Shown piece by piece: positions 48,518 to 52,600 of a DNA stretch of 64,000 bases. This stretch comes from Candidatus Xenobia bacterium (lineage in GTDB: Bacteria; Vulcanimicrobiota; Xenobia; Xenobiales; QWHO01): assembly GCA_045863235.1 (NCBI GenBank), contig BTUM01000007.1, positions 1-64,000 on the forward strand, in the 5' to 3' direction. A model generated the notes under the pieces. That model ran no database searches and had not been told where the DNA came from. It was given only the letters and a program-made list of their open reading frames with translations. Every line of letters begins with the position of its first letter. Positions within the stretch are counted from its first letter, which is position 1. The translations under genes and the position numbers were made by a program.

Positions 48518-49210
48518 TTAACTTCTGGCTGCTTCCACCAGGCGGTCGAACAGGCTCTGCTGCGATCGCATGTCCTCGGGGTGGAACTGGACCCCGAGCT
48601 GAAAGCCTCCCCGGCGTCGCTCGATGGCCTCCGCGGTGCCGTCGGCAGCGCTGGCCACCACCTGAAAGGGAGCGGCCAGGCGGTCGATGGCCTGGTGATG
48701 GATGGAGTTGACCCGGGGGTTGGCTCCGAGTAGTTTGCGCAACTCCGAATCCGGGGCCGTCTCCAGGCGGTGGACCGGTTCCGCGCGTAGGGCCGGGTCG
48801 TCCAGGACGCGCTCGGGGGCGTGCTCGGGGAGGTCCTGGTGCAGGCTGCCCCCCGCAGCCACGTTCATGACCTGTAAGCCGCGGCAAATGCCCAACAGGG
48901 GAAGGTCCTCACGCAGGGCTTTGCGGGCCCAGGCCAGCTGGAAGCGATCCAGCTCGAGGTCGTGCTCGGCTGGTAGCAGGGGACTCTGGCCGTAGAAGCC
49001 GGGATGCAGGTCTCCACCGCCGGGAAGAATCAGTGCCTGGGGACGGGAGAGGGGCCGGGCACCGGGCTCGAGCAGCTCGGCTTCGGCTCCAGCGCGCTGC
49101 AGGGCCTCCTGGATGAGGGGGATGGTGCGATGGGTGGGACCGTTTCCGGCTGTGGCGCGGATGGGCTTGAAATAATTCCGGGGGATCAGGATGGCAACTC
49201 GGATCAGCAT
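48518..49210 (-). CDS. peptidase C26 / gamma-glutamyl-gamma-aminobutyrate hydrolase family (class I glutamine amidotransferase)
   Basis: PGGGDL, GICRG (nucleophile Cys), NSIHHQ, GVQFHPE. Confidence 0.88.
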   Translation of the reverse strand: MLIRVAILIPRNYFKPIRATAGNGPTHRTIPLIQEALQRAGAEAELLEPGARPLSRPQALILPGGGDLHPGFYGQSPLLPAEHDLELDRFQLAWARKALREDLPLLGICRGLQVMNVAAGGSLHQDLPEHAPERVLDDPALRAEPVHRLETAPDSELRKLLGANPRVNSIHHQAIDRLAAPFQVVASAADGTAEAIERRRGGFQLGVQFHPEDMRSQQSLFDRLVEAARS

Positions 49211-49251
49211 ACGTACCTCTGATTGTTGGATTGGGGCGCGAGGACTTTAGC

Positions 49252-49332
49252 TCAGCGACAACAACAACAGAGGCAACAACAACGGTACGAGGAGGCAGCG
49301 AAGAAAGGCGCGTCCTGGATGTACCGCATCAT
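49252..49332 (-). CDS. poly-cysteine leader peptide MMRYIQDAPFFAASSYRCCCLCCCCR (putative attenuator sORF)
   Basis: ATG ATG CGG ... CGT TGT TGT TGC CTC TGT TGT TGT TGT CGC TGA; stop lies 41 nt upstream of the C26 start codon. Confidence 0.8.
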   Translation of the reverse strand: MMRYIQDAPFFAASSYRCCCLCCCCR

Positions 49333-49338
49333 AGGGGT

Positions 49339-49367
49339 ATGATAACCGCTCCACTCCTTTCTGGCAA
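49339..49367 (-). promoter_or_regulatory. sigma70-type promoter placing the start site at the leader ATG (leaderless)
   Basis: Minus strand: TTGCCA, 17 nt, TATCAT, 6 nt, ATG. Confidence 0.7.
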
Positions 49368-49484
49368 GCCCGGGATGTTACAATTCAGTTGCGGCAAAGT
49401 CGTGACGGGCATCTCCAGCCACAAGTGACCGGTACATAAGGCGCCGCACCCTTTCGGAATGGCGGGCGCCGTTCAACAGATTGT

Positions 49485-49535
49485 CTACACTCCCGCGCGT
49501 TCCAATTCTGAACAGGTCGACGCGCGGGAGTGTAG
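49485..49535. repeat. 16-bp perfect inverted repeat with 19-nt spacer
   Basis: CTACACTCCCGCGCGT ... ACGCGCGGGAGTGTAG. Confidence 0.8.
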
Positions 49536-49690
49536 CGTCAGGCAACAAACTCGGCTCGCTTGCTGAATCTCATTCCAGTCGTTTCGGCGAATATCTGTTC
49601 GCCCCCTGAGGCTCAAACTCCCGGAAGCAAAGCGCTCTGGAAAATCAGGGGATTCGAAGGGCCCGGACGGATCACGACGAAACGAAGCTC

Positions 49691-52600
49691 GTGGCACTTC
49701 AGCCTGGGCAGTTGCTTGGAGATCGCTACCGCATTTCGCGCGTCCTGACCAGCGGCGCCATGGGTGCGGTGTATCAGGCTGAGGATTCCCGGATGCAGTC
49801 TTATTGCGTCATCAAGGAGATGCTCGAGATGCAGCCGGGATCGGCTGACGACCAGGCCATCATGCGCCGCTTCGAGGAGGAGAAGGCCATTCTGGCGCGC
49901 GTCAGCCATCCCGGCCTCCCCCGTGTGCGTGATTTTGCGCTGGTCAACGGTCTGTGCTACATCGTATCGGATTTTGTCGAGGGCACCAGCCTCGAACAGC
50001 AGCTGACCGATTGTCTCAAGCAGACCGGCCGTCCCGTTCCGGGACGCGAGCTGGTGCCAACCATCCTCTCGGTGCTGGAGATCCTCGAATACCTGCACTC
50101 GCTCACTCCCCCGGTGCTCCATCGCGATGTCAAGCCGGCCAACATACTGTGCGAAGCCCGCAGCGGCAAGGTCATGCTGGTGGATCTGGGTCTGTCTCAG
50201 CCGCTGGATGCGCGACGCACCCCCTCCGGGGCCAACACTCTGGGGTATTCGCCCCTCGAGCAGATTCAGGGCCGTCCCGAGCCGCGCTCGGACCTGTACG
50301 CTCTGGGTGCAACCATGAGCCAGATGCTTTCCGGGCAGCTCCCGGTGCCTCTGGGAATCCCCCCCCTGGCGACCCTCACCTCGCTCGTCGATCCCCCCCT
50401 GGCGGCTCTGGTCGATCGGGCCTGCGCTTTCAACCTGGAGCATCGCTTCGCCAGCGCCCGAGAGATGCGTCAGGCCCTGGCTGCCTGGCTGGCCCGGGCC
50501 AGCGGAGAGCCTGTCCCGGCTGAAGAGGCGCAGTCGACCGATTCTTCCCCGCGCCGGCCGCGCCCCGCCCCGGTCTTTCCCAGCAAGTCCGGAACCGTGC
50601 CGACCGGACGACCACAGGTCGTGCCTCCGATGCCCAGTTCGTCTCCTGTCGCTCGTCGCGAGTTCGGACGTGCCGCTGGCGAGGGACCCCCCGGGGGGGC
50701 GCCCGGAGAGGCGCCGGCATCCGTCGGCTCGTCTGAGGTGCCAGCGCCGGCCCAACCGCCGGCAACACCGCCTCCCATGGCACAACCGCCCGCTCCGGCC
50801 CCCCCAGCTCCAGGACCGGTTGGAACGTCTTCGCCCCTGCCCCCGATTCAGTCCGCTCCGCCCGTCGCTGCTCCGATGCCTCCGGCTCCGCCGGTGGCCG
50901 CCCAGCCGGCCGCTCCGATGCCTCCCGCCCCGCCCGTGGCCGCCCAGCCGGCCGCTCCAATGCCTCCCGCCCAGCCCGTGGCCCAGCCGGCCGCTCCGAT
51001 GCCTCCCTCCCCGCCCGTGGCTCAGCCGGCCGCTCCGATGCCTCCAGCCCCGCCCGTGGCTCAGGCCGCCGTTCCGATGCCTCCAGCCCCGCCCGTGGCT
51101 CAGGCCGTCGCTGCGATGCCCCCGCCTGTGGCTCAGCCGGCCGCTCCGATGCCTCCCGCCCCGCCCGTGGCCCAGCCGGTCGCACCGATGCCACCCGCCC
51201 CGCCCCTGGCCCAGCCGGCCGCTCCGATGCCCCCGCCCCTGGCCCAGGCTCCCGTCCCGCCCTCGATGCCTCCGGCGCCTCTTGCTCCGCCGGGCGTGAC
51301 TCCACAGTTTGCTTCGGCCCAGCTTCCCATGGCCCAGCCTCCCGGTGCCCCACCGGTGCCCCCGATGGGGTCGGCTTTCCCCCCTGCCACGGGCCCCATG
51401 AGTCCCCCTGCAGGTGCCGCCTGGCCGCCGCCTCCCGATACCGAGTCAGCCGTGATATCGGGCCCACCTCCTGCGCAGCCGGCTCTCATCCCTCCGAGGG
51501 GCGAGGCCTTGCTCCCCCCTCTGCCCGGGTCGAGACCTGGCCCCCCGCCCATGACCGAGGGGATGGATGAGGCCCTGGATGCGCCGATGCCTCCGCCGCT
51601 TCCGCCTCTCAATCTTCCGGATAGTGCCGCCAGGCTGGAGCCGTGCGAGGTCACGCTGCCGTCCCCGAGTTCACATCTGGCGGCCCCGCGTCCGGCTCCG
51701 CCTATTCCCAGCTTGCGGCCCGATGCTCCCGAGCCCGCGCCTTTGAAGCTGGCCCTGGAGCGTCCCGACGCTGCCGGGCGGCCACCGATGAGTGCCCCGG
51801 AGCCAGAGCCCGACCTCGAGCCTCAGGCCGAGGTCAGTGAACCTGATCATGAACCCTTTGGCGGGCCAGAGACCCCGCCACCATTCGACCCGTATCTTGA
51901 GCCCGAGGAGCCTTATGCCCAGCCTTCTGCTCCGGCCGCAAAGAAGGCTGCGCCGAAAGAGAAGAAGGCAGGACGCGGACTTCCCCTTCCGGCCATCCTG
52001 GTAGCCGTGTTGCTCGTCGTGGTAGGCGGATTCTTTGCGGGACGCTACTTCAACCAGGGTCCCCAGCCTGTGGCCAGCGAGTCTCCCACGGTCACGCCCT
52101 CGGATGAGCCCTCAACAGAGCCTTCACCCACTCCGGCAGCCTCGGTGAGCCCCGAGCCTGTGGCTTCGGCCAGTCCGGAGACCTCGCCCAGTCCATCGGC
52201 CAGTCCCGAGCCGGTCGCCTCGGCCAGTCCTTCGGTCAGTCCCTCAGCCAGTCCGGAGGCTTCGCCCAGCCCGTCGGCCAGCCCCGAGCCGTTGGCCTCG
52301 GCCAGCCCGGACGCATCCCCCAGCCCGTCCGCTTCTCCCTCTGAGGTGGCCTTGCAGGACGCCGATGATGACCGGGAAACCGACCCGAAGGCTTCGTTGC
52401 CCCCTCCTCCCACCTCCAATCCCACCGCCGAGGGAGGGCTGAAAGTCGAGTCGACCGGGGCGGGCCTCTCCTTCGAGGTCCCGGCCGGGTTCGAAGTGCG
52501 CCGCAACAACTGGGGCAAGCACAGTGCCGAGCTTCATTTCCGCAAGGTGGAGCCCTGGGGAGAAATGCGCCTGCGCGTAAAAGTTCAGCTCGGACGCAGC

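Follow-up and report, generated by a model that had tools for sequence, protein, structure and literature searches.

A conserved poly-Cys leader ORF as a predicted cysteine-sensing attenuator of a peptidase C26 gene in Vulcanimicrobiota

The window analysed here is a stretch of 64,000 nucleotides of contig BTUM01000007.1, from the Candidatus Xenobia bacterium assembly GCA_045863235.1. On its minus strand, a gene of the peptidase C26 family is preceded by a very short ORF that ends with a run of Cys codons and is itself preceded by a promoter-like motif. The features of this locus are, in the direction of transcription:

49362..49367, minus strand: TTGCCA, -35 box of a sigma-70-like promoter (motif)
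49339..49344, minus strand: TATCAT, -10 box at 17 nt from the -35 box and 6 nt from the leader ATG; predicted leaderless start
49252..49332, minus strand: leader ORF of 26 codons, MMRYIQDAPFFAASSYRCCCLCCCCR-stop, with its ATG at 49332 and a counterpart in 19/19 orthologues
49283..49327, minus strand: 5' hairpin predicted by folding within the leader ORF, which stops just short of the Cys tract
49258..49281, minus strand: Cys-codon tract CCCLCCCC in the leader translation, predicted stall site
49262..49275, minus strand: anti-Shine-Dalgarno (anti-SD) arm, in which the non-Cys codon CTC gives the bases pairing with GAG
49214..49228, minus strand: 3' arm, containing the Shine-Dalgarno (SD) sequence AGAGGT of the C26 gene (49215-49220), 4 nt before the ATG at 49210
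48518..49210, minus strand: gene for a peptidase C26/class I glutamine amidotransferase-like gamma-glutamyl hydrolase of 230 residues (Pfam and structure model)

The original prediction, made from the letters of the window, placed a peptidase C26 gene at 49210. That gene is intact, and its product matches the Pfam family Peptidase_C26 (PF07722) with 153.7 bits for a cut-off of 20.5. It belongs to a clade of ~105 proteins sharing 43-93% identity, all of which (105/105) harbour the C109-H210-E212 triad and Q113, and whose N-terminal loop contains near-invariant Y13, N23 and R28 residues. The structure model (pLDDT 92) shows a class I GATase fold with no apparent N-terminal signal peptide. Lin1909, PuuD of E. 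coli and SpuA of the P. aeruginosa type, the top fold hits (TM 0.77-0.82), have the same fold and Cys-His-Glu triad. Nevertheless, the protein differs from these solved C26 enzymes by its low identity to them (26-30%), by its own N-terminal loop and by a score for the PuuD equivalog (NF008471) of 74.9 bits, below the cut-off of 266. The members of the clade are labelled by default as gamma-glutamyl-GABA hydrolases or putative amidotransferases, and none of the C26 annotations refers to cysteine.

The genes found next to the C26 genes vary among loci and are mostly unrelated to sulfur, so that the neighbourhood gives no clue to the substrate. In the window, genes for a 182-residue protein with a signal peptide-like start and an 808-residue phospholipase D-like protein closely follow the C26 gene (45454-48476, minus strand). 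They may share its transcript here; this gene order is not kept outside the genus. In one relative (L034:1-1512) the C26 gene lies near a divergent methionine synthase gene, which was not seen at the other loci scanned.

The leader ORF and its promoter had been described as TTGCCA-17-TATCAT-6 nt-ATG opening a 26-codon poly-Cys ORF, and all these elements are present at their coordinates on the minus strand. This TTGCCA-17-TATCAT motif is the top promoter-like site between 47800 and 49750, with 10 matches out of 12 (2 sites compared with 0.2 expected). Six of the seven Cys codons of the ORF are TGT, a codon that accounts for 15% of the Cys codons in the 1710 long ORFs of the genome; TGT was thus rightly called atypical in this DNA. 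As one tRNA-Cys(GCA) gene was found in the genome, TGT codons are decoded by wobble. With seven Cys in eight codons, the leader ORF ranks first among 2174 intergenic upstream short ORFs, a set derived from rough gene calls in which the runners-up have four. Genome-wide, 8 of 48,209 six-frame Met-led short ORFs have at least 5 Cys residues in their last 10 codons, and the leader ORF has the highest number (7). No Rfam match was found up to E = 1 in the region 48900-49800. For the other four genomes of this genus, folding predicts a 5' hairpin similar to that in the leader ORF. Further upstream (49465-49536), we found a 72-nt repeat that forms a long inverted repeat (-33.9 kcal/mol) and is REP- or MITE-like. 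It yielded 56 BLAST hits in the genome, 32 of which are aligned over at least 55 nt, and many RNA-library contigs carry it as well.

The 6-nt interval between the -10 box and the leader ATG brings up the question of a leaderless mRNA. Throughout the genome, TANNNT motifs upstream of ATG starts show a sharp peak at 6 nt (108 of 2723 genes, for 5-16 at distances 0-5 and 11-27), which indicates that leaderless mRNAs are probably common in this organism. The description of the ORF as leaderless thus agrees with the genome-wide peak as far as motif spacing goes, but the strict spacing is found in 5 of the 19 orthologous loci only; it is 9-10 nt in 6 loci and 14-26 nt in 8. Across the 19 loci no SD was ever seen ahead of the leader ATG, including those with spacings of 9-26 nt. 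All 19 harbour a TTG-led hexamer 17-18 nt upstream of the -10 box, which is TTGCCA in 10 of them. A leaderless start is therefore a fair prediction from motif spacing at this locus and not a fixed trait of the lineage. Two RNA runs, both available as contigs only, touch on this region. A contig from a relative (~90% alike) spans the C26 gene and the Cys tract and ends at the position corresponding to 49292, inside the leader; a second run, which may be DNA, covers the promoter with a uniformly low depth, and neither run shows a start site.

Close orthologues of the C26 protein (E 5e-53 or better) were found in 17 of the 61 genomes searched; 5 belong to this genus and 12 to two genera of a second family. 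A scan of metagenomes yielded 2 true orthologues among 80 loci. These 17 genomes and 2 metagenome loci provide the 19 closest orthologues, all from two families of Vulcanimicrobiota. An ATG-led poly-Cys leader precedes the gene in 17/17 genomes and 2/2 metagenome loci, the ATG being picked by hand in each case as the one that follows the promoter-like motif. Thus, the Cys frame is conserved in relatives, a feature on which the original prediction depended. The leaders are 24-39 codons long and contain 6-10 Cys, with a stop codon 0-2 codons past the last Cys (9 TAA, 6 TGA and 4 TAG). Their 156 Cys codons comprise 120 TGT and 36 TGC. The residues ahead of the Cys tract are not conserved across orthologues, and the two other reading frames of the 19 loci have no consistent ATG starts and stops. 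Within the genus, leader lengths change by 3 nt, and one RNA-library contig also has a 3-nt deletion.

Outside this group, no leader of this layout was found upstream of any of 161 distant C26 loci. They comprise three sets: none of 13 in the first, none of 72 in the second, ten of which had scattered Cys-rich stretches in another layout, and none of the 76 that were scored out of 78 in the third, with two off-pattern hits. A quickly built tree places all 19 proteins with a leader in a single group of 24 (SH-aLRT 96). Its five remaining members are three extra gene copies of genus g2 without leaders and two long branches, one with upstream DNA too short to score. These extra g2 copies (L012/L286 in G005, L284, L285) have no Cys leader; one of them is located immediately downstream of the copy with a leader, possibly on a common transcript. 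A sequence-only RNA model recovered the 17 known loci with E values up to 5e-10; it gave no strong hits elsewhere, as expected from its construction, and among 33 weaker hits examined, no intergenic Cys leader was found. The (TGY)4 pattern was also tried as a leader finder over 45 genomes and discarded as too unspecific, since 40 of them matched and hits to a control pattern were frequent as well. For the leaders themselves, poly-Leu and poly-Val readings of the Cys-codon repeat were rejected on the placement of starts and stops.

Repeated UGU triplets automatically yield a Cys run in one frame, and TGT might be favoured because it pairs with ACA. The ORF might thus be incidental to a (UGU)n hairpin that acts as RNA only, fixing a low translation rate or binding a protein. 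We consider this improbable, given the in-frame ATG and the position of the stop in 19/19 leaders, with all three types of stop codons. The interchange of TGT and TGC and the 3-nt indels also argue against it, as does a second Cys leader located ahead of a cysteine synthase gene (see below).

A link between the Cys codons and the C26 gene is apparent from base pairing. The Cys tract had been proposed to be complementary to the segment containing the SD, and the predicted duplex between 49275-49262 and 49228-49214 indeed has 14 pairs with one bulge and one G-U pair, and includes AGAGGT in its 3' arm. The leader folds with -40.8 kcal/mol (z = -2.9), a value equalled by 2 of 200 shuffles. No intrinsic terminator is predicted between the leader and the C26 gene (49252 to 49210). 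The effect of a ribosome on this structure was computed by masking the Cys codons with a 30-nt footprint, a comparison that the original prediction had put forward as a check: the energy needed to open the ribosome-binding site (RBS) falls from 18.0 to 4.8-6.5 kcal/mol. Masking reduces the opening energy in 17/17 loci, by 1.7 to 15 kcal/mol. The effect is slight in locus L006, where the closed state is weak (6.3 compared with 4.6). A footprint on the stop codon gives 7.6 at our locus, which is near the value for the Cys position, and keeps the RBS more closed in genus g2 (9-17). As a ribosome at the stop codon opens the RBS nearly as well in the present genus, the switch would have to rely on ribosome dwell time.

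A duplex covering the SD region is predicted in 19/19 loci, with complete pairing of the three AGG core bases in 17. As in the window, the anti-SD bases come from a non-Cys codon (Leu, Pro or Ser) within or just ahead of the Cys tract. The positions that flank the SD core form differing standard pairs between lineages in these predicted duplexes. The upstream regions of relatives had been expected to contain an anti-SD covarying with the SD, and the two do shift in step. Cognate duplexes have a mean energy of -17.7 kcal/mol compared with -14.7 +/- 0.5 for swapped ones (0 of 20,000 permutations), a statistic that ignores kinship as the relatives are not independent. With 9 hand-picked dissimilar representatives, the values are -17.8 and -14.0 kcal/mol (1 of 20,000 permutations), and the cognate partner is the best in just 5 of 9 columns. 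Fourteen of 17 duplexes are better than 95% of shuffles of the SD region. The remaining three are L012 (0.11), L014 (0.08) and L016 (0.71); the arm of the latter lies partly beyond the 42-nt window used. RNAalifold on a plain MAFFT alignment of the 19 leaders returned no consensus structure. We attribute this to the varying position of the helix along the tract: its distance from the stop is 5-23 nt in this genus and reaches 40 nt in others. The natural compensatory changes support an SD-hiding helix, with the reservation that the pair table was built from predicted duplexes, which makes this table partly circular.

Runs of Cys are also reminiscent of the precursors of thiazole-type peptides. 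With 6-10 Cys at its C-terminus, the leader peptide could itself be the product, as a metal-binding mini-protein or a Cys-rich RiPP precursor, and the genome has one partial match to YcaO, on another contig. We deem this very improbable. The peptides have no conserved N-terminal leader, their lengths and numbers of Cys vary, and no modifying enzymes were found among the neighbours scanned. Furthermore, neither the TGT bias nor the pairing with the SD would have a role for such a peptide.

Altogether, the leader is very probably a cysteine-sensing translational attenuator of the type described for Ms5788A in Mycobacterium smegmatis. This reading has a computed basis: the ORF and its conservation, the pairing and its covariation, the opening of the SD on masking and the intact catalytic triad. 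The comparative results favour the attenuator that had initially been proposed. Based on the promoter spacing, RNA polymerase would start at or next to the leader ATG, and a ribosome would translate the 26 leader codons. With ample Cys-tRNA, it would clear the tract; the SD region would then be taken up by pairing with the Cys codons, leaving the C26 gene untranslated. When charged tRNA-Cys is scarce, ribosomes would dwell on the seven Cys codons and block the helix; the SD would thus be free and the hydrolase would be made in response to a lack of cysteine.

The same sensor might have another main output, namely Rho-dependent termination or RNA decay acting on the C-rich spacer, with the SD pairing as a secondary feature. 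Rho is encoded in the genome, and in all 19 loci the spacer that precedes the SD region is rich in C and poor in G (32-52% C, 0-20% G). Rho-dependent control has also been proposed for actinobacterial Cys leaders (PMC1262725). However, the spacer measures only 36-59 nt, its C- and A-rich composition is accounted for by pairing with UGU repeats, and the anti-SD covaries with the SD. In addition, an inserted SD removed the response of Ms5788, which indicates translational control, with polarity downstream of it (10.1101/834739). We therefore regard Rho or decay as an unlikely main output. With Rho encoded in the genome and a spacer rich in C, polarity may reinforce the translational switch, and it could be a secondary effect at the C26 locus too.

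The best independent support for the C26 leader comes from a second Cys leader in the same genome:

G000:C69 26758-24366, minus strand: Cys leader of cysK-cysE, for which an antiterminator and an intrinsic terminator are predicted

Its promoter and start, TTGACA-17-TACTGT-7 nt-ATG, lead into an ORF of 35 codons, five of them for Cys. A GC-rich hairpin and a U-rich stretch come next, ahead of cysK, cysE and a siroheme-synthase fragment. Folding suggests the layout of a classical attenuator: once the Cys codons are masked, a segment becomes available for pairing with the 5' arm of the terminator in the nascent RNA, although over the full length the terminator is the favoured fold. Cys leaders of this terminator type were identified in 5 genomes (loci L111, L114-L116, L174, L176), before cysK-cysE in 3, namely this one and two relatives, and before a sulfite-reductase operon in 2. 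Among the cysK loci fetched, 3 of 30 have the leader before cysK, and 2 more have it before the sulfite reductase gene. Sulfur genes of this lineage thus appear to be controlled through Cys codons. Upstream of cysS, the 30 loci examined in this order, out of 38 matching genomes, showed no convincing Cys leader; 2 ORFs there contain one CC pair each. Between the terminator and cysK lies a short ORF (G000:C69 about 26550-26425; L111:8553-8426, minus strand) with a sulfite-reductase-like start and a cysH-like end, by comparison with the relative G004. By eye, it looks like the scar of a deletion of the sulfite reductase and cysH genes.

The mechanism proposed here is already published; what is new is the phylum and the target gene. 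The layout of Ms5788A, part of the 'Cys ribulon' of M. smegmatis, was proven by mutants (10.1101/834739). Both systems have a short first ORF with a C-terminal Cys run whose codons pair with the SD of the next gene, lack an intrinsic terminator and are among several Cys-led loci of their genome. The C26 system differs in its phylum, in its hydrolase target, in the computed nature of its evidence and in its spacer, which is shorter than the 97 nt of Ms5788A. Leaderless spacing is found in part of our lineage only, and the sister cys-operon locus has an intrinsic terminator. The main text of the Ms5788A report contains neither 'glutamyl' nor 'peptidase' (10.1101/834739). We infer that the C26 system arose independently of it.

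Other Cys leaders have been predicted in Actinobacteria before cys or cbs genes (PMC1262725), and a leaderless two-Cys leader was described for cysS of Deinococcus deserti (PMC4007540). They share with ours the Cys codons in a short upstream ORF; they differ in that their cysteine-related targets are cys, cbs or cysS and that they were read as controlling transcription or as acting through Rho. A 2026 paper deals with four attenuators of Mycobacterium tuberculosis (PMC13096801). As in trpL-type attenuators, stalling on cognate codons would select an RNA structure. The cys-operon leader fits the trpL design, unlike the C26 leader, which has no terminator before the gene and acts on the SD. Our literature search, with thin coverage of subscription journals, found Cys leaders described neither for this phylum nor upstream of C26 genes. 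A non-mycobacterial host and a new target had been foreseen in the original prediction, in line with the source names of close proteins, which agree with Vulcanimicrobiota, and with the C26 identity of the gene.

The substrate of the C26 enzyme is less clear-cut. The gamma-glutamyl site is general to the C26 family (PMC12958103), and the fold therefore does not name the substrate. GGP1, an Arabidopsis member of this family, degrades glutathione, and the invariant Gln four residues after the nucleophile of our clade corresponds to its Q104 (PMC12958103). GGP1 is absent among the listed sequence and fold hits, and it is thus a functional precedent and not a close relative. A number of indirect hints point towards cysteine salvage, namely the regulation by Cys codons, the Cys-poor sequence, the lack of sulfite reductase hits, the GCS2 or GshB-like ligases and the GGP1 precedent. 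In the clade, 79 of 105 proteins have only the catalytic Cys in their core region, compared with 36 of 133 other C26 proteins, a count in which kin are not independent. No sulfite reductase gene was found in this genome, which is 97.6% complete, and a single query detected one in just 2 of the 17 genomes with a leader. The genome has cysD- and cysN-like genes (G000:C36 70386-73175); with no sulfite reductase found, activated sulfate may serve sulfation and not cysteine synthesis. The search for an ergothioneine route gave no EgtB match over the cut-off.

As for thiol ligases, neither gshA nor gshB was found in this genome, which makes home-made glutathione an unlikely substrate and leaves gamma-Glu-Cys and imported glutathione as candidates. 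The genome encodes two GCS2 ligases, and of the 11 genomes with a leader in g1 and g4, 10 contain GCS2. The six leader-bearing g2 genomes gave no GCS2 hits, and GshB-like hits below cut-off only. Such GshB-like ATP-grasp proteins (L314-L323), below the curated cut-off, occur in all 8 g2 and both g5 genomes, and in at least two of these g2 or g5 genomes the genes adjoin a second ATP-grasp gene. Overall, GCS2 or GshB-like hits were obtained in 16 of the 17 genomes with a leader, the exception being G019, which has neither; two genomes have GshB-like hits without a leader-bearing orthologue. From these sequence data, the enzyme most likely cleaves gamma-Glu-Cys or glutathione, a prediction with about even chances of being right. 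The same chances apply to the most likely substrate class, which would be gamma-glutamyl amides that hold Cys (gamma-Glu-Cys, glutathione or a conjugate), from which Cys or Cys-Gly would be freed.

It is a serious possibility, at somewhat under even chances, that the switch is real and that the enzyme does not release cysteine directly. It might hydrolyse another gamma-glutamyl amide useful in cysteine shortage, such as a gamma-glutamylated sulfur amine, a PuuD-like substrate or glutamine. Such a role would change the enzyme step alone and leave the switch unaffected. The PuuD- and SpuA-like nature of the nearest structures and models would fit with it, as would the missing gshA and gshB, the g2 leader genomes devoid of GCS2 and the situation of G019. 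Furthermore, two gamma-glutamyl transpeptidases are encoded in the genome and could already split glutathione. In contrast, the sub-threshold PuuD score, the other C26 paralogues without leaders in the same genomes, the near-general presence of ligase hits in leader genomes and the scarcity of Cys in the clade argue for a Cys-holding substrate.

A translational and a terminator-type Cys leader in one genome constitute a pair with which to study how one signal is converted to two outputs. With the C26 leader, a mechanism so far proven in mycobacteria alone is extended to a phylum that is largely uncultured. The leader also serves as an annotation, as it connects the ~105 members of this protein family with the supply of cysteine and allows a substrate to be predicted. 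We tentatively propose, with the balance slightly against it, that the members of the clade are bacterial cytoplasmic gamma-Glu-Cys or glutathione hydrolases, counterparts of GGP1 held off by the ribosome, and that together with the cys-operon leader they form a two-armed cysteine ribulon that evolved independently in Vulcanimicrobiota. If this is true, the off-state would spare the thiol store of the cell unless cysteine is short. Cysteine synthesis would be controlled at transcription and salvage at translation, giving a two-armed ribulon in bacteria most of which yielded no assimilatory sulfite reductase.
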